Part shown: piece by piece, positions 1,581 to 32,908 of the stretch | How positions within the stretch are numbered: position 1 is the first letter of the stretch | Layout of the letters: each line of letters begins with the position of its first letter | Assembly: GCA_002763225.1 (NCBI GenBank) | Contig: PFAI01000028.1 | Coordinates: forward strand, 1 to 47,021 | Reading direction: 5' to 3' | DNA length: 47,021 nucleotides | Source of the DNA: Candidatus Diapherotrites archaeon CG10_big_fil_rev_8_21_14_0_10_31_34 | GTDB lineage: Archaea; Iainarchaeota; Iainarchaeia; Iainarchaeales; 1-14-0-10-31-34 | Translations under genes and position numbers: made by a program | Notes under the pieces: generated by a model | What the model saw: only the letters and a program-made list of their open reading frames with translations | Told to the model about the DNA's origin: nothing | The model's database searches: none

Positions 1581-2561
1581 TCATGTCCAAGTAATCTGAA
1601 TTTGATCTGTACGTTCCTTTGGTCTTATCTGACTTTCTGATAGTTTTGTTGTAATTCCATTTTTGAACATTAAAAGTCCTAGCCAGCTGATTTGTGTGCC
1701 ATTATCCACGCAGACTTCTCTTGGAGGAACAAAAAATTTTGCTTTTCTTTGTTTGCACATTTCTTTCATCATTTTTCTTAATGCATTGCTTGAAGCAACT
1801 CCTCCGGTCAAAAGCAGTTCTTTTTTTCCTGTGTGCGCCATTGCCCTTTCAGAAACCTCTGTCAGCATTGAAAAAGCAGTATGCATTAAACTATACACTA
1901 AATCTTTTTCGTTTTCTTTTTTGATTTTTTGTTTTCCTGCTGTAAGCAGGCCGGAAAAAGCCAAGTCCATTCCTTTAACAGTATAAGGCAGTTCAATAAA
2001 TTTTTTTCCAGTAAAATACATTTCATCCATTTTTGGGCCGGCAGGAAATCCCAGATGTATTTCTCTTCCAAAAACATCCAAAAAATTTCCTATTCCAATA
2101 TCAATTGTTTCCCCGAAAACCCTGTATCTTCCTTGTTCTAAACCAATAATCTGTGTATTGGCGCCGGAAGCATAACAAGTAATTGGATCTTTTGCTTTTG
2201 TAAGTTTCCTGCCGATTTCAATGTGTGCAATGCAATGATTTACCCCAACCAAAGGCTTGTTATGTATAAGAGAAAGAGTTCTTGCTGTTACTGCTCCTAC
2301 TCTCAAACAATTTCCTAATCCAGGTCCTTGAGAGAACGCAACCAAATCAATTTCTTTCCATGAAACATCTGCTTTTTCAAGTGCATTCTGAATTACTTTT
2401 TTTGCATTTTTATAATGAAAGTCTGCTGCTTCTCTTGGATGAATTCCAACAGAATCTTTTTTAACATAAGAAATTTTTTCGTTTGCAAGAATTTTGCATT
2501 TTTCGTTTACTATTCCTATCCCGAAAGTATGTGCAGTTGACTCAATTCCTAAACAAATCAT
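1581..2561 (-). CDS. kae1: KEOPS tRNA t6A transferase Kae1 (standalone, no Bud32 fusion)
   Basis: LGIESTAHT, SQGPGLG, NHCIAHIE, SGANTQ, GETIDIGIGN motifs. Confidence 0.97.
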   Translation of the reverse strand: MICLGIESTAHTFGIGIVNEKCKILANEKISYVKKDSVGIHPREAADFHYKNAKKVIQNALEKADVSWKEIDLVAFSQGPGLGNCLRVGAVTARTLSLIHNKPLVGVNHCIAHIEIGRKLTKAKDPITCYASGANTQIIGLEQGRYRVFGETIDIGIGNFLDVFGREIHLGFPAGPKMDEMYFTGKKFIELPYTVKGMDLAFSGLLTAGKQKIKKENEKDLVYSLMHTAFSMLTEVSERAMAHTGKKELLLTGGVASSNALRKMMKEMCKQRKAKFFVPPREVCVDNGTQISWLGLLMFKNGITTKLSESQIRPKERTDQIQITWT

Positions 2562-3172
2562 TTTTTCGCCATCTTTTTGATGAAACTTTTTCTAAAAGTT
2601 TCTATTTCTTTTAAAGTTGTTTTTCCTTTTCTCACAATCTTTTTTTCTTGAACATCATAAATCGTGCTTGGTTCATTTTCTGCAAGAGTTTTTGCATCAA
2701 AAATAAAGTCAACTTTTTTTCCAAGTATTTTGACTGCTTCTTTAAAAGAATAAATTGGTTTTTTTCCTGAAAGGTTTGCGCTGGTTGAAATTATTGGTTC
2801 GCCTATTGTTTCAACAATTGAGTTTGCAATTTCATTTGAACTAATCCTTAAAGCAATTGTTTTTTCGCTTACTTCTTTTGGAATTAATTCTGTCCCTCTT
2901 GTTTTTTTCGGTACAATCAAAGTTAAATTCCCTTTAAATTCTTCAAGCAGTTTTTCTGCTTCAGGATTTATTTCAGCAAATTTTTGGGCCATTTCTTTTG
3001 AAGAAACAAGAATTACAAATGGTTTTTTTCTGTCTTGTTTTATTTCCCTGATTCTTTTAATTGATTTAATATCACTTATTTTACAGCCTATTCCATAACT
3101 TGTTTCTGTGGGATAAACTATTACCCCGTTTTTTTTCAGCACAAATACTGCTGTTTTTATTCCAACATTCAT
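2558..3172 (-). CDS. sua5: Threonylcarbamoyl-AMP synthase (single-domain Sua5/YrdC)
   Basis: YPTETSYGIG, STSANLSG and PSTI motifs; overlaps the kae1 start. Confidence 0.92.
   Translation of the reverse strand: MNVGIKTAVFVLKKNGVIVYPTETSYGIGCKISDIKSIKRIREIKQDRKKPFVILVSSKEMAQKFAEINPEAEKLLEEFKGNLTLIVPKKTRGTELIPKEVSEKTIALRISSNEIANSIVETIGEPIISTSANLSGKKPIYSFKEAVKILGKKVDFIFDAKTLAENEPSTIYDVQEKKIVRKGKTTLKEIETFRKSFIKKMAKK
2575..2602. repeat. AT-rich palindrome copy inside the sua5 3' end
   Basis: TTTTGAT-GAAACTTTT-TCT-AAAAGTTTC; encodes ETFRKSFIK. Confidence 0.75.
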
Positions 3173-3707: not shown

Positions 3708-3905
3708 TTATTTTTGTTCCCCTTTGTCTTTCCATTCAGTGTAAGAACAGTTTCCACAAGAATACCTGTTTTTGTGTTCAGCTAAAAATACCCCTGAACC
3801 ACATTTAGGGCAGAACTTGCTTTTTCTTTTTAGTTCTCCGCCTTTTACTTCATATTTTTCTGATTTCTTTGAATTTGGGTGTTTTTTTCTAACTTTTTTT
3901 GTCAT
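3708..3905 (-). CDS. rps27ae: 30S ribosomal protein S27ae (eS31)
   Basis: [23 protein letters not shown] zinc ribbon. Confidence 0.97.
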
Positions 3906-3921
3906 TTATTTCACCTTGTTT

Positions 3922-4008
3922 TTTTGATGCAGCTTTTTTCTAAAAAGTTGCTTTTGATTAAACTTTTCCTAAAAGTTTTTTTTGTTAAACCTTTTTTTAA
4001 AAGTTTTT
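3922..4008. repeat. Three tandem copies of the AT-rich palindrome
   Basis: TTTTGAT-GCAGCTTTTT-TCT-AAAAAGTTGC (3922), TTTTGAT-TAAACTTTT-CCT-AAAAGTTT (3952), TTTTGTT-AAACCTTTT-TTT-AAAAGTTT (about 3980). Confidence 0.85.
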
Positions 4009-4009
4009 T

Positions 4010-4148
4010 GCAGTGCTATCGCAGACCCGCTTTCGTGCGGGTGTAACGGTGCACCACTTTCAGTGGTGCTAGCCCCGTGCAAAGCACGGTGCCTCGTACT
4101 CAACTGCTGAAACAGTTGTTTTGATTAAACTTTTTTTAAAAGTTTACT
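4010..4148. repeat. GC-rich multi-hairpin REP/BIME-like element, copy A
   Basis: 4025-4148 matches 10665-10788 at 123/124 nt; four GC hairpins followed by the AT palindrome. Confidence 0.9.
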
Positions 4149-4152
4149 CACC

Positions 4153-4515
4153 TTACTTTTTTTTCTTTTTACTTTCAAGTTTCTTTTTTTCTTTTGCTGC
4201 TTTTTTTGATTCTTTTGTTTTTTTTATTCTTTCTTTGTCTCCAGCAAAATTTCTTCCCAGAACATAATCTAATTCAACTTCTTTCATTTTTTCTTTGTCT
4301 TTGTATGTTCTTGCTTTTCCTGTGCAATACTTTTCTCCAAAATTTTGCTTTATTTCTGTTATTACTGTTGAATCAGAGTTTGATTCAGTTAAAGCTGAAA
4401 TTTTTTCTTTTAAGTCTGTTATTTTTGGTGTTGAATTAATTTCTGTTACTTTAAAGTCTATTTCTTCTCTTGAAAGTAATGGATTGCTTTTTTTGTTGGT
4501 TATTTCTACTTTCAT
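4153..4515 (-). CDS. rps24e: 30S ribosomal protein S24e
   Basis: NPLLSREEIDF...IKQNFG...GKARTY; conserved position after spt4. Confidence 0.93.
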   Translation of the reverse strand: MKVEITNKKSNPLLSREEIDFKVTEINSTPKITDLKEKISALTESNSDSTVITEIKQNFGEKYCTGKARTYKDKEKMKEVELDYVLGRNFAGDKERIKKTKESKKAAKEKKKLESKKKKK

Positions 4516-4536
4516 TGTGATTCCTCCGGTTTCTTT

Positions 4537-4731
4537 TTATCTGCTTAATCTTAATGCGTGTTTTCCTGTGGTTGTAATTCCCATTTTTTTTGCTATCTCT
4601 GATTTTTCCGGGTCAGTTATTACTACATAGCCTCTCCAGAAAGTAGTAAAGCTGTTGCTTCCACAGTTAGGACATTTGTCTCCTTCTTCTATTACCCTTC
4701 TGCATTCTCTGCATGCTTTTCCTTTACTCAT
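4537..4731 (-). CDS. spt4: Transcription elongation factor Spt4 (RpoE'')
   Basis: KACRECRR...CPNCGS...WRGYVVITDPEKSEIAKKMGI. Confidence 0.97.
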   Translation of the reverse strand: MSKGKACRECRRVIEEGDKCPNCGSNSFTTFWRGYVVITDPEKSEIAKKMGITTTGKHALRLSR

Positions 4732-4751
4732 TTATTCTCCAACTCCATTTT

Positions 4752-4779
4752 TTTTGATTAAACTTTTTTTAAAAGTTTA
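4752..4779. repeat. AT palindrome copy supplying the last codons and stop of rpoE1
   Basis: TTTTGAT-TAAACTTTT-TTT-AAAAGTTTA; reads KLLKKV* on the minus strand. Confidence 0.85.
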
Positions 4780-5399
4780 TTTTTCTGGGTTTTTTTTTCA
4801 ATTTCTTTTTTTTCTACTTTTGGTGTGTTTTCTTTTCCTTTCTTTATTTTTTCTTTTCTTTTTAAGTCTATTGCAAGCCATTCCTCTTTTCCTAATCCTG
4901 GCTGTCTCATTGTTAAACCTAATTTTGAATTTGGGATATTCCCTTTTAGACTGCAGGTTACAATTCTTGCTATTACTTGGTCTTCTAAACCCAGTTTTTT
5001 GTTTGTTTCTTTTCCAATAAACCCTGGGCCTTTTGCATCATAATTAATATAATCATTCATTATCTGGCTTACATGAATTAATCCTTCTATTGGTCCTGTT
5101 CTGACAAATGCCCCGAATTCAGTTATTTCTGTTATTGTTCCTTCAACTATTTCTTTTGGTTCTGGTTTGTAAACTAATGCCTTATATTCTGATTCATAGT
5201 AGGCTGATCCGTCCCCTGGAATTACTTTTCCTTCTCCTACTTTGTCTACTTCTAATACGGCAACAATTACTCCGACACTTTCATCTACTATTCCTTCATA
5301 TTCCTCTTTTACTATTTTTAAAATTGATTCTTCCAGTTTTCCTCCAAAGTCTTTTGGCGGGACCCTTACAGTGTCTTTCATTGAAATTATTGCATACAT
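4758..5399 (-). CDS. rpoE1: RNA polymerase subunit E' (Rpo7)
   Basis: VRVPP, GKVIPGDG, FGAFVRTGPIEGLIHVSQI, LGLTMRQPGLGK. Confidence 0.97.
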   Translation of the reverse strand: MYAIISMKDTVRVPPKDFGGKLEESILKIVKEEYEGIVDESVGVIVAVLEVDKVGEGKVIPGDGSAYYESEYKALVYKPEPKEIVEGTITEITEFGAFVRTGPIEGLIHVSQIMNDYINYDAKGPGFIGKETNKKLGLEDQVIARIVTCSLKGNIPNSKLGLTMRQPGLGKEEWLAIDLKRKEKIKKGKENTPKVEKKEIEKKTQKNKLLKKV

Positions 5400-6985: not shown

Positions 6986-6998
6986 CTTCTCGTTTTTT

Positions 6999-7046
6999 GC
7001 AGTACGGGCTTGTCCCGTACCTCGTATTCAACTGCCGAAACAGTTG
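6999..7046. repeat. Short variant of the GC-rich hairpin element (copy C)
   Basis: GCA-GTACGGG-CTTGT-CCCGTAC-CTCGTATT-CAACTG-CCGAAA-CAGTTG; shares the CCTCGTAYTCAACTGCYGAAACAGTTG module with copies A and B. Confidence 0.85.
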
Positions 7047-10664: not shown

Positions 10665-10788
10665 ACCCGCTTTCGTGCGGGTGTAACGGTGCACCACTTT
10701 CAGTGGTGCTAGCCCCATGCAAAGCACGGTGCCTCGTACTCAACTGCTGAAACAGTTGTTTTGATTAAACTTTTTTTAAAAGTTTACT
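10665..10788. repeat. GC-rich multi-hairpin REP/BIME-like element, copy B
   Basis: Identical to 4025-4148 except A10717 versus G4077. Confidence 0.9.
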
Positions 10789-18736: not shown

Positions 18737-18816
18737 TTTTGATTAAACTTTTTTCTAAAAGTTTTTAGCAGTGTTATTGAAAATAGCACGCTCTCTTCGC
18801 GCGAGCAGGCGCGAAG
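18737..18816. repeat. AT palindrome plus GCAGT-led hairpin module downstream of tRNA-Leu (variant D)
   Basis: TTTTGATTAAACTTTTTTCTAAAAGTTT, then GCA-GTGTTATT-GAA-AATAGCAC and CTTCGCGC-GAGCAG-GCGCGAAG. Confidence 0.7.
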
Positions 18817-18817
18817 A

Positions 18818-18979
18818 TGCAGGAGGAGAGATTCGAACTCTCGAAGGCACTAAGCCACAGGATCGCTTAAAACATTAAAATAATGTTTTTGCCCAAGCAA
18901 ACTTTTTTGATACAACTTTTTTTCTAAAAAGGTTGTGTTTTCTTAAGTCCTGCCCCGTTGACCGCTTGGGTACCCCTGC
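18818..18979 (-). tRNA. tRNA-Leu(TAA) with a 78-nt intron at 37/38 (18864-18941)
   Basis: GCAGGGG acceptor pairing with CTCCTGC-A, CAGGA-CT-TAA-G^intron^A-TCCTG anticodon arm, long variable arm, GAGAG-TTCGAAT-CTCTC T arm, perfect bulge-helix-bulge; no encoded CCA. Confidence 0.96.
18905..18936. repeat. AT palindrome copy inside the tRNA-Leu intron
   Basis: TTTTGAT-ACAACTTTTT-TTCT-AAAAAGGTTGT. Confidence 0.8.
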
Positions 18980-18985
18980 ATTATA

Positions 18986-24568: not shown

Positions 24569-25030
24569 TTAAACCATTTTGTTAATTAATTTGTTTATTT
24601 CTGTTGCCCTATAGCCTAATGCACCTCCAATAGAATAAGCTTTTTTTATTCCTGCTCTTTCATATCCTTTTTTTGGAGGTTTTAACCTGAACACAGGTTT
24701 TATTTCTAAATCTTTTAATTGAATTTCTTCTTTGATTATTTTTTCTGCTAATTCCTTAAATGAATTAATCTTTTTTTCTTTTAAGTATTCTATTAATACT
24801 TTTTTGTTCCCTTTCAAAAAAGCTCTTTTTGAGAGAACTTTTTCTAAGGTTTCAGCTTCTATTTCTCCGTAAGTTACATAGTCTTTTACTTTTTCAACCA
24901 TTTTTTTCATTTGCTTTTTTTCTGAAATCAAAACCAAATGGTTTACTCTGAATAACCTTAGCATTTTCATTGTATCGTTTATTTCGATTTTTGTTCTAAT
25001 GCTTCCTCTAACTCTTATTACTGCCAACAT
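24569..25030 (-). CDS. rpl30: 50S ribosomal protein L30
   Basis: AVIRVRG, KVKDYVTYGE, FRLKPPKKG, GGALGYR. Confidence 0.97.
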   Translation of the reverse strand: MLAVIRVRGSIRTKIEINDTMKMLRLFRVNHLVLISEKKQMKKMVEKVKDYVTYGEIEAETLEKVLSKRAFLKGNKKVLIEYLKEKKINSFKELAEKIIKEEIQLKDLEIKPVFRLKPPKKGYERAGIKKAYSIGGALGYRATEINKLINKMV

Positions 25031-31513: not shown

Positions 31514-32022
31514 TTTTTTTCATTTCCTCCTTTTTTTCCCTTTTTCTTTTTTGATAAAACTTTTCTCAAAATTTTCTTTTGCTTTTTTTTGCTGATTGTT
31601 CTTCCTTTTTTCTTTATGCTTTTCTTTTTGGCTTTATTTTTTTTCTTTCTTGTTCTTTTTTTTGTTTTCTTCTTTTTTGATGAAACTTTTTTCAAAAGTT
31701 TCTTTTTAATTGAAATTTTGTCTTTTTTTTCGTCTTTTGTTTTTTGTTCAACCTTTCGTTTTGATAAATCTTTTTCTAAAAGATTTAAAGGTTGTTTTGT
31801 TTCTTCTGGTTTTTCCTTGCCTGCAAGTTTCTTTTCGTTTATTATTGTTAAAGTTCTTGCAATATCTCTTCTGATTTTTTTTATTTTTCCTGGATTTTCT
31901 GCTCTTGTTCCTGAACTGATTTGTGCTTTTTCTTTTGCTAAATCCCCTTTCATTGAAATAACTTTATCTTCCAGTTCTGTTATTGGGAGTTCTCTTATTT
32001 CTTGAATTTTTTTCTTTGTCAT
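31510..32022 (-). CDS. rpl29: 50S ribosomal protein L29 with ~105-aa very basic C-terminal tail
   Basis: EIREL...ENPGKIKKIRRDIARTLT core followed by a Lys-rich tail. Confidence 0.93.
   Translation of the reverse strand: MTKKKIQEIRELPITELEDKVISMKGDLAKEKAQISSGTRAENPGKIKKIRRDIARTLTIINEKKLAGKEKPEETKQPLNLLEKDLSKRKVEQKTKDEKKDKISIKKKLLKKVSSKKKKTKKRTRKKKNKAKKKSIKKKGRTISKKKQKKILRKVLSKKKKGKKGGNEKK
31549..31787. repeat. Three AT palindrome copies in the L29 tail (31549-31575, 31675-31702, 31759-31787)
   Basis: Encode KILRKVLSK, KLLKKVSSK and NLLEKDLSK; the last is a perfect TAAATCTTTT/AAAAGATTTA stem. Confidence 0.8.
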
Positions 32023-32029
32023 TTAATCA

Positions 32030-32908
32030 TCACTTTTCTTTCTTTTCTTTTGATACAACTTTTTCTAAAAGTTGTTTTTCGTCTTTTTTTGTTTCTTTGC
32101 TTTTTTCTTCATCTTTTTTTTCTTTTTTGTATTCTTTTGCTTCTTCTTTTCCTTCGTCTTTCTTTTTGTGTCCTTTTTTTTCTTTTTTATCGTCTTTATC
32201 TTTTTTCTTGTGTTCTTTTTTGTTTTCTTCTTTTTCTTCGGTTTTCTCTTTTTTCTCTTCTATTCTGGTTTCTTTTTTAGTTTCTTCTTTTGGTTTTTCT
32301 TTTCTGCTTTCAATTAATTCTTTAATATCAATTTTGTCTGGGAAAACTGTGCCTGGTTTAACTATTCTTATTTTTACTCCTATTGTCCCAAATTTTGCTT
32401 TTGCAGGTGCAGCCCCGTAATCAACCATTTTTGCTTGTTCTCCGATTTTTTTCATATATCCTTCTGCTACTCTTTGTTTTCTTTTTCTTACTCCTTTTCC
32501 GCCTAGTGCTCCTGACAAAACTATTTCTACTCCTTGTGCTCCTGCTCCGGTAATATCTTTTACTGTTCTATACACTACACTTCTCCAGCTAAAACCTCTT
32601 CCAATTAAACTTGAGATTTTGTCTGCCATTGCCTGTGCATCTAATTCAGGGACAGTAATTTCTTTTATTTCTATTTGAGGGTTTTCTATCCCGAATTTTT
32701 CTTCTAATATTTTTGTCAGTTTTTTGATGTTTGTTCCGCCTTTTCCTATTGCTAGTCCTGGTCTAGTTACATTTAATACAATTCTTGTTACCAGAGGGGT
32801 TTTGACTGTTTCAAGTTTGGTAAAACCTGCTTTATCTAATTCTTTTTTTAAGTAATTTTCCATTTCAATTTTTTTTATTCCTTGTTTGATGAATATTCTT
32901 TCAATCAT
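32030..32908 (-). CDS. rps3: 30S ribosomal protein S3 with charged C-terminal extension
   Basis: RPGLAIGKGG, PELDAQ, AGAQGVEI, GYMKK, GTIGVKI. Confidence 0.97.
   Translation of the reverse strand: MIERIFIKQGIKKIEMENYLKKELDKAGFTKLETVKTPLVTRIVLNVTRPGLAIGKGGTNIKKLTKILEEKFGIENPQIEIKEITVPELDAQAMADKISSLIGRGFSWRSVVYRTVKDITGAGAQGVEIVLSGALGGKGVRKRKQRVAEGYMKKIGEQAKMVDYGAAPAKAKFGTIGVKIRIVKPGTVFPDKIDIKELIESRKEKPKEETKKETRIEEKKEKTEEKEENKKEHKKKDKDDKKEKKGHKKKDEGKEEAKEYKKEKKDEEKSKETKKDEKQLLEKVVSKEKKEK
32048..32075. repeat. AT palindrome copy in the rps3 3' end
   Basis: TTTTGAT-ACAACTTTT-TCT-AAAAGTTGT; encodes QLLEKVVSK. Confidence 0.8.

Follow-up and report, generated by a model that had tools for sequence, protein, structure and literature searches.

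The 247-nt spacer (positions 3906–4152) between the ribosomal protein genes rps24e and rps27ae of Candidatus Diapherotrites archaeon CG10_big_fil_rev_8_21_14_0_10_31_34 is filled by a hairpin array. This array is a lineage-specific insertion at a junction that was ancestrally an 8–12-nt spacer containing only a Shine–Dalgarno sequence. It lies in a 47,021-nt stretch of DNA (contig PFAI01000028.1, positions 1 to 47,021), which was analysed as a whole and is called the window below. The spacer is made up of four AT-rich hairpins, here termed AT modules, each followed by WAWCAAAA, and a block with 56% G+C that forms four to five hairpins, among them the hairpins X and Y of the "XY unit". It comprises nine modules with recurring linkers, and the best match in the genome differs from module to module. 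We consider it more likely than not that the array is a lineage-specific accumulation of short palindromic repeat modules that are non-autonomous, spread as DNA, and come from a family that has expanded in the genus. Because the modules recur throughout the genome and form long tRNA introns, the array looks like mobile filler DNA rather than a dedicated regulatory RNA. Hereafter, the genome under study is designated G000, its congeners G001–G005, and two members of other genera of the same family G006 and G007.

Orthologous junctions and the duplicated composite

The C-terminus of S24e (...KKKLESKKKKK) is conserved throughout the genus. The spacer between rps24e and rps27ae measures 8 nt in G002, 12 nt in G003, 11 nt in G007, and 17 nt in G006 and is essentially GGTGA followed by ATG; the congeners show a single TAA/TAG-GGTGA-ATG junction where G000 has two copies of AAGGTGA. 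The spacers of G004 and G005 are longer and A-rich, and are free of hairpins. In G001, a 103-nt spacer holds one AT-type palindrome and one XY unit, the latter on the opposite strand to that of G000 (the match of R1, the covariance model of the XY unit, is on the plus strand and the gene on the minus strand). The same 10-nt junction carries different modules in opposite polarity and was therefore filled independently in two species. Five AT modules lie in a 3.3-kb syntenic block of G000; in four of the five congeners, the block contains none. The description of these genes as normally abutting in the original prediction, which was made from the sequence of the window, was roughly right: by a rough stop-to-start estimate, the spacer is ≤30 nt in 16 of the 28 relatives measured, and two congeners have 8 and 12 nt.

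The whole array in G000 is bracketed by the 7-nt direct repeat AAGGTGA, as read from the sequence (minus strand). The left copy (4148–4154) overlaps the rps24e stop codon, and the right copy (3911–3917) is the Shine–Dalgarno sequence of rps27ae. When the array and one AAGGTGA copy are removed, an ancestral-type junction, TAAGGTGAAATAAATG, is restored. The array has no terminal inverted repeats.

Most of the array exists twice in the window. The 124-nt composite of AT module 4, hairpins H1, H2, X, and Y (4025–4148, minus strand) is 99.2% identical to a sister composite that fills the rps28e–rpl24e spacer approximately 6.6 kb away (10665–10788, minus strand; found by sequence match, flanking genes by Pfam). 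The composite has been recently copied between two ribosomal-protein spacers. No direct repeat was seen flanking the sister copy. The rps28e–rpl24e junction is 11–16 nt long in three of the five congeners, and other XY-type modules occur there in G005 (in the sense orientation) and G002, so the XY unit at that site may be older. The composite was probably copied from the rps28e–rpl24e junction into the rps24e–rps27ae junction, a direction suggested by this comparison. A third, shorter array lies between rps6e and the eIF2-gamma gene (6996–7041, minus strand) and consists of H1, GTACGGG-ACAA-GCCCGTAC, and TGCAAAAAAC. Three translation-operon junctions in one window therefore bear arrays.

The array is no assembly artefact, because contigs of other groundwater samples span its internal junctions: contigs of run X4 cover positions 3992–4054 and 4025–4817 with no differences. 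Other contigs from such samples stop precisely at 4025 and 4148, and the remaining joints among them are repeats from other loci. In run X2, a single contig joins 3909 to 4148 and skips the whole array; its shorter side is 33 nt long with 90% likeness, which is a weak hint of an empty site in the population.

Modules, copy number, and stem covariation

The spacer is flanked by rps27ae (3708–3905; Pfam Ribosomal_S27, 4.3e-17; ORF) downstream and rps24e (4153–4515; Pfam Ribosomal_S24e, 5.8e-20) upstream, and the minus strand carries every gene in this part of the window. In the sense of the genes, the array runs from the rps24e stop codon with the overlapping AAGGTGA through AT module 4, H1, linker AGTACGAG, H2, X, linker GCACCGTTAC, Y, half module CTGCGATAGCACTGC, and AT modules 3, 2, and 1 to the second AAGGTGA and the start codon, with all four AT modules and the GC block on the minus strand in one orientation. 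AT module 4 (4119–4148) is the hairpin TAAACTTTT-AAA-AAAAGTTTA with the tail ATCAAAA; like AT modules 2 and 3, it was delimited with the AT pattern and the alignment. H1, CAACTG-TTTCAG-CAGTTG, was recognised with the linker AGTACGAG (4093–4118) by its recurrence in the window, where all three of its copies lie (4101–4118, within the 10665–10788 copy, and 7024–7041). H2, GCA.CCGTGC-TTT-GCACGG.GGC (4072–4092), is predicted in both the minimum free energy (MFE) and centroid folds of both strands. Hairpins X, GCACCACU-GAA-AGUGGUGC (4051–4069), and Y, ACCCGC-ACGAAA-GCGGGT (4025–4042), were defined by alignment A1, and Y combines a variable stem with a conserved RCGRAA loop. The conserved single-stranded linker GCACCGTTAC (4043–4052), which ends in GTTAC, was identified by word recurrence, as the genome holds 10 exact copies where 0.40 would be expected. 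The same approach delimited the half module CTGCGATAGCACTGC with its CAAAA-type tail (4007–4024), whose word GATAGCACTGC has 11 genome copies against 0.14 expected and which closes with the same ...ACTGCAAAAAAC end as the array at 6996–7041. AT module 3 (3980–4006) is AAACTTTT-AAAAAAA-GGTTT with the tail AACAAAA, AT module 2 (3952–3979) is AAACTTTT-AGG-AAAAGTTT with the tail AATCAAAA, and AT module 1 (3920–3951; pattern match 3923–3947, alignment A2) is GCAACTTTTT-AG-AAAAAGCTGC with the tail ATCAAAAAAA. As a further module tail, ACTGCAAAA was rejected; its 107 copies looked enriched, but 94 of them lie in coding sequence.

These modules account for the original prediction of a spacer of about 245 nt built of hairpins, every one of which was found: the AT palindromes at 3929–3951, 3958–3978, 3987–4006, and 4126–4146, GCAGT at 4010, ACCCGC/GCGGGT at 4025–4042, GCACCACT..AGTGGTGC at 4051–4069, CCGTGC/GCACGG at 4075–4089, and CAACTG/CAGTTG at 4101–4118. 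The core was also correctly described as more GC-rich than the genome (56% G+C at 4000–4099 vs 31%). The folding exceeds chance. The 111-nt core has an MFE of −48.0 kcal/mol on the minus strand (z = −3.7) and −47.9 kcal/mol on the plus strand (z = −4.1), reached by none of 200 shuffles each, and for the whole spacer the MFE is −73.5 kcal/mol (z = −6.1), equalled by none of 200. The AT palindrome pattern has 15 matches in the window against 1.36 expected, and none of 100 shuffles reached 15. No Rfam family was reached in the core at its gathering threshold, the best being Arrc14 (20.4 bits, threshold 99) and COG3943 (19.4 bits, threshold 71.8); Rfam matches at E up to 10 were chance-level only, and a known RNA family was rejected for the spacer. 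Default ARAGORN identified no tRNA or tmRNA in the window. A small protein encoded in the core (ORFs of 42–44 amino acids on both strands) was rejected as well, since the sister copy differs in start and frame context and the variation is stem covariation and not codon-like, as was a CRISPR-like array, the units being hairpins 28–30 nt apart with no unique spacers.

The modules are not confined to the three arrays of the window, and variants occur at many loci in the assembly and in related genomes. The 121-nt core matched its own genome 27 times, one match being the 99% copy at 10665–10765. The linker GCACCGTTAC was found in a G+C-rich context at 26 places, of which 22 were aligned; the four left out are a palindromic site on C16 read in reverse, a match in coding sequence on C30, an aberrant copy on C45, and the copy on C65. 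Among the 22 XY copies, 81.8% of the stem cells are paired compared with 61.3% in shuffles (reached by none of 500), and 11 of 13 pairs show compensatory changes. Helix Y is paired in 97% of cells, with compensatory changes in five of six pairs. Helix X reaches 68.8%, because approximately a quarter of the copies hold a non-hairpin module in place of X, with compensatory changes in six of seven pairs. The stems of 11 AT copies in the window contain seven doubly changed cells against 2.5 expected (0 of 500 shuffles), a signal weaker than that of the XY unit but real, and the AT palindromes are part of one repeat system with the GC modules. Mismatches of the G–T and A–C types number 4 and 6 of 216 cells in Y and 8 and 18 of 252 cells in X. 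As G–U is not preferred over A–C, the stems give no sign of one selected RNA strand. G+C-rich islands make up approximately 8% of the intergenic bases (9,098 of 107,133 nt, tRNA genes included).

The abundance of the modules varies strongly across the genus. In searches of more than 40 genomes with R1 (E up to 0.01, stricter Infernal filters), there were 47 matches in G000 and 53, 12, 37, 28, and 20 in the congeners, against 0–2 in three other genera of the family and 0–11 in 32 genomes of other families. The AT-module pattern has 103 matches in G000 (five with the reversed-pattern control), 26 of them inside coding sequence (CDS) calls, and 17–111 in the congeners. It has 13–57 matches in other family members and mostly ≤10 in genomes of other families. 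The repeat system is thus family-level and has been expanded to very different extents in sister species. A strict exact-pattern scan of a wider genome collection, which possibly lacks close relatives, returned a single locus (L094). The published full-text literature that we searched contains no account of repeats of this kind in the tRNA introns or operons of DPANN or Iainarchaeota.

tRNA genes, introns, and protein tails

When introns were allowed, ARAGORN found 39 tRNAs (a few of them spurious) compared with 23 by default, and at least 11 have introns of 76–254 nt. These long introns are made of the same AT and GC modules as the spacer, and the modules recur in the introns of different tRNAs. 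Hairpin Y ends 0–2 nt ahead of the 3′ exon in three tRNAs, and two tRNA-Arg introns start and finish with inverted AT modules, like terminal inverted repeats. A canonical bulge–helix–bulge motif that uses the 3′ arm of Y is present at tRNA-Tyr; none was found at the borders of 10 of the 11 long introns scanned. The same scan of the spacer returned low-complexity AT pairings only, with a weak positive control (1 of 11 long tRNA introns). In the window, tRNA-Leu(TAA) (18816–18980, minus strand) was found only with introns allowed and has an intron of approximately 78 nt with an AT module; its 3′ trailer holds a GC hairpin, GCGTGCTAT, and another AT module.

The AT hairpins also abut the ends of tRNA genes. 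They start directly after the 3′ end of approximately eight of 36 tRNAs, in the sense orientation, and end directly before the 5′ end of approximately eight others, in the antisense orientation, so that in every case the hairpin is turned towards the tRNA and the A-rich tail away from it (contigs C8, C9, C22, C23, C25, C31, C32, C42, C44, C47, C53, and C58). Another hairpin module, AAACGTTTCGCCGT, with 15 copies (approximately 0 expected), abuts tRNA ends likewise. Upstream of two tRNA-Glu genes (C31, ~24725–24790, and C64, ~352–420), an AT module lies inside a duplicate of the 5′ 16 nt of the tRNA, and an inverted copy of 10 of the 16 duplicated bases adjoins the module. This inverted duplication looks like a fold-back (template-switch) extension of the palindrome.

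In lysine-rich C-terminal tails of uL29, uS3, and RpoE′, AT modules are translated in frame as K-L-L-K-K-V-S (or stop). In-frame modules in the window lie at 31676–31698, 31760–31782, 32049–32071, 4753–4775, and 2576–2598, in these tails as well as at the end of the gene that lies upstream of kae1 (2558–3172). In RpoE′, the AT module supplies the final codons and the stop codon, and the RpoE′ of congeners aligns only to residue ~180 of 213.

Spread of the modules, competing readings, and known systems

If the modules spread as DNA, they would multiply as hairpin-forming units. The agent could be an enzyme acting in trans, or template switching or gene conversion promoted by hairpins or microhomology, but would not be a REP/RAYT (repetitive extragenic palindrome/REP-associated tyrosine transposase) or IS200-type transposase. 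Modules would then be retained only in positions and orientations that do no harm. Oligo-T is the archaeal signal for transcription termination, and an antisense insertion within an operon would therefore be polar. In gene sense, the array has A-rich tails and a single T5 run, with otherwise no more than T4, whereas its complement has six runs of T6–T8, which offers a simple explanation for the excess of sense over antisense AT modules (65 to 16). The array itself is most likely simply co-transcribed in the operon, where it would place stable stem–loops between the two cistrons. Protection of the 3′ end of the rps24e mRNA, a block to antisense transcription, and a promoter resembling the transcription factor B recognition element and TATA box (BRE/TATA) in AT module 1, whose loop lies approximately 31 nt from the rps27ae ATG, would be possible side effects of secondary importance.

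Searches for a mobilising enzyme covered several families. The Y1 transposase profile PF01797 has no match in G000 or in G001, G002, G003, and G005, and within the family only G004, G006, and G008 carry Y1 genes. The best score in G000 for the TnpB zinc-ribbon domain is 14.3 bits against a cut-off of 26.3, and RVT_1 (reverse transcriptase) has no significant match there. The Y1 genes do not track module number, as G001 has 53 XY units and no Y1 gene, and G006 five Y1 genes and no XY unit. Around the Y1/OrfB genes examined in the family, R1 (E up to 1) gave no match in 19,914 nt, and no XY unit lies within approximately 1.5 kb of them. The five Y1 genes of G006 (loci L081 and L083) are nearly full-length (~155 amino acids) and belong to an IS200-like family unrelated to the XY and AT repeats. 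With no Y1 gene in G000 and no modules beside the Y1 genes of the family, the link that defines the REP/RAYT system was not found. All-against-all clustering of 1,144 gene calls into 20 paralogue clusters, with six proteins of the top four clusters scanned, revealed no transposase-like multi-copy family; among the multi-copy protein families, the largest are methyltransferases, FtsZ, and a ParE-like protein. A 14.5-kb XY-rich stretch of G001 contains tRNAs and ORFs that are ordinary, as judged by length and start only.

Several observations weigh against a simple spread of the modules as DNA. These searches did not identify a mobilising enzyme, and mobility is deduced from distribution; the G000 assembly is only 81.5% complete, and repeats and insertion sequences are often unassembled. 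The flanking repeat of the G001 insertion is only approximately 3 nt long compared with 7 nt in G000, so no fixed target-site duplication is established, and the repeats are read as microhomology or variable duplications. The mirrored AT hairpins at mature tRNA ends are not predicted by random insertion and may reflect a processing function or a precise target preference. That loops and linkers are conserved implies a specific binding partner, possibly an RNA-binding protein. Finally, 65 of the 103 AT modules are in the sense orientation relative to the local gene or tRNA and 16 are antisense, the rest being located between divergent or convergent genes or at contig ends, a bias that an RNA-level role or RNA-mediated spread would also fit. 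Among 38 XY matches identified with nhmmer, those inside transcripts show a similar ratio of 12 sense to 3 antisense (9 to 3 in tandem spacers and 3 to 0 in tRNA introns), which again fits an RNA-level role too. The other XY matches are in tRNA flanks (two sense, three antisense), between convergent (10) or divergent (two) gene pairs, inside CDS calls (three), and at contig ends (three). All of these orientation counts depend on a simple, crude gene caller.

This sense bias is the first argument for a different and, in our judgement, unlikely explanation, in which the modules are RNA-level cassettes: the hairpins would serve as recognition or processing modules for the tRNA-splicing endonuclease or another RNase, be spliced from tRNAs as introns, punctuate or stabilise operon mRNAs, and possibly spread via RNA. 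Such cassettes would also account for the long tRNA introns built of modules, the position of Y close to the 3′ splice site in three tRNAs, the hairpins at the 3′ and 5′ ends of tRNAs, the retention of loops and linkers beside variable stems, and the canonical bulge–helix–bulge of tRNA-Tyr formed with the 3′ arm of Y. However, the array is missing from the junction in most congeners and flipped in one, so it is not needed for the rps24e–rps27ae operon; G–U mismatches show no excess over A–C; XY units occur in both orientations, with 10 of 38 between convergent genes; a reverse transcriptase was not found in G000; and the scan for canonical motifs picked up only low-complexity AT pairings in the spacer and nothing at the borders of 10 of the 11 long introns. 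A related idea, to which we likewise give only a small chance, is that the modules are an archaeal counterpart of "introner" elements, that is, hairpin cassettes handled by the machinery of tRNA splicing and end processing. Insertion into a tRNA gene may then make or lengthen an intron while the gene survives, and insertion at an operon junction may be tolerated or trimmed. The mirrored hairpins at tRNA exon ends, the sense bias, and the conserved loops would then be signatures of RNA-level handling.

It is still less probable that the AT palindromes are bidirectional BRE/TATA promoter or terminator cassettes, AT module 4 driving a small RNA encoded by the GC core and AT modules 1–3 driving rps27ae. 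AAAC-TTTTAAAA does resemble the upstream profile of the genome (rich in T approximately 30 nt and in A approximately 25 nt before ATGs, preceded by another A-rich stretch), modules end 14, 21, and 17 nt before the ATG of kae1, spt4, and rps27ae, and in its high G+C content and strong folding the GC core is like structural RNAs of AT-rich genomes. Nevertheless, the distance from a module to the next ATG on the same strand is broad (11 to >400 nt, median ~115, with approximately 4 of 62 at 11–17 nt), many copies are located within tRNA introns or directly at tRNA 5′ ends, too near to drive the tRNA, and 24 modules form in-frame parts of coding sequences. Variation from 17 to 111 copies among congeners would not be seen with a general promoter, the array at 6996–7041 and most XY units have no upstream AT module, and the core has no Rfam match. 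As a separate observation, the upstream profile contains a TTT-AAAA signal centred approximately 27 nt before start codons, together with a GGTG Shine–Dalgarno signal, which suggests a mix of leaderless and leadered mRNAs. An autoregulatory ribosomal-protein leader or rRNA mimic controlling how rps27ae (and, at the sister copy, rpl24e) is translated is very improbable: the arrays occupy the 5′ regions of ribosomal-protein cistrons at two, arguably three, translation-operon junctions, and their predicted RNA is strongly structured, but they are not conserved at the orthologous junctions of congeners, and the modules also occur in tRNA introns and beside unrelated genes on either strand, so that the comparative data are already close to refuting it. 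Both this and the promoter and small-RNA reading fit the comparative data poorly.

The preferred reading, a pile-up of modules spreading as DNA, was compared with known repeat systems. Bacterial interspersed mosaic elements (BIMEs) are mosaic palindromic clusters whose units alternate in orientation and bind integration host factor or gyrase, and REP sequences carry a GTAG-type tetranucleotide 5′ of the hairpin. The present array shares with BIMEs a mosaic of palindromic units with conserved linkers inside operon spacers, and with REPs variable stems, a conserved single-stranded word beside the hairpin, and a copy number that differs strongly between related genomes. It differs in its archaeal (DPANN) host and in having no Y1/RAYT gene in G000 or four of the five congeners. 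Its conserved words are GCACCGTTAC before Y and RCGRAA in the loop, with no GTAG, and all AT units of the array share one orientation, with no alternation; inverted XY pairs sharing hairpin X do exist elsewhere in the genome (for example, C31, 16796–16888, and C51, 2657–2748), none in the array. The array mixes AT and GC classes, and its modules also serve as building blocks of tRNA introns and as translated parts of protein tails. The original prediction of a REP-like mosaic thus stands as regards a mosaic of recurring, varied palindromic units, but not as regards membership of the REP/BIME system, which lacks support from either a Y1 gene or alternating units. Neither of the outcomes that it named as refuting, an Rfam match or modules confined to these loci and free of variants, was observed. 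It did not include the shared repeat system of the AT palindromes, the sister copy of the composite, or the tRNA introns built of the modules. The array behaves like bacterial REP/BIME arrays without being a member of that system. REPs, which can pair as REPINs and are associated with RAYTs (PMC3337134, PMC3116915), are likewise short imperfect palindromes, mostly extragenic, in tens to approximately a hundred copies; the 1.04 Mb of G000 holds 47 XY and 103 AT matches.

In the Thermoproteales, similar intron sequences in different tRNA species have been read as intron transposition (Fujishima et al. 2010, as summarised in PMC4033280). The recurrence of the same modules in the introns of different tRNAs is comparable, whereas the introns here consist of modular hairpins that also occur outside tRNAs, are much longer (76–254 nt), and have a bulge–helix–bulge at the border in one case. 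Bacterial REP/REPIN and BIME arrays are the closest systems functionally, and among archaea the transposed tRNA introns of the Thermoproteales. Miniature inverted-repeat transposable elements are similarly small, non-coding, and multi-copy, AAGGTGA is a possible target-site duplication, and the two tRNA-Arg introns have inverted AT modules at both ends; on the other hand, neither a parent element nor a family of transposases was found in G000, terminal inverted repeats are absent from the array itself, and the length of the flanking repeat varies. Subterminal hairpins with a conserved short word alongside are also a feature of IS200/IS605 elements and palindrome-associated transposable elements, and IS608 uses a TTAC-type target word. 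The proposed comparison with IS200/IS605 ends was not borne out, as neither TnpA (Y1) nor TnpB was found in G000 and no module lies near the Y1 genes of the family. The introner elements of eukaryotes are mobile DNA that turned into introns because host splicing removes it. The likeness holds only if the modules are handled as RNA; the splicing system is a different one, and excision of the modules from RNA is hypothetical here. New in the present system are the case of an operon junction, the comparison between orthologous sites, the counts across the genus, the statistics on orientation and mismatches, and the negative association with Y1.

REP/BIME-type systems are known mainly from bacteria and depend on a domesticated Y1 transposase. 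Here, comparably abundant modular hairpin repeats occur in an ultra-small archaeal genome where that enzyme was not found, and they occupy the tightest places of the genome, namely ribosomal-protein operon junctions, tRNA introns, tRNA ends, and protein tails. For annotation, a structured, G+C-rich island in an AT-rich DPANN genome need not be a small-RNA gene or a riboswitch. The system bears on the origin of long archaeal tRNA introns and on the tolerance of streamlined genomes for selfish DNA and, if the introner-like reading were true, the genus would show intron birth in progress.

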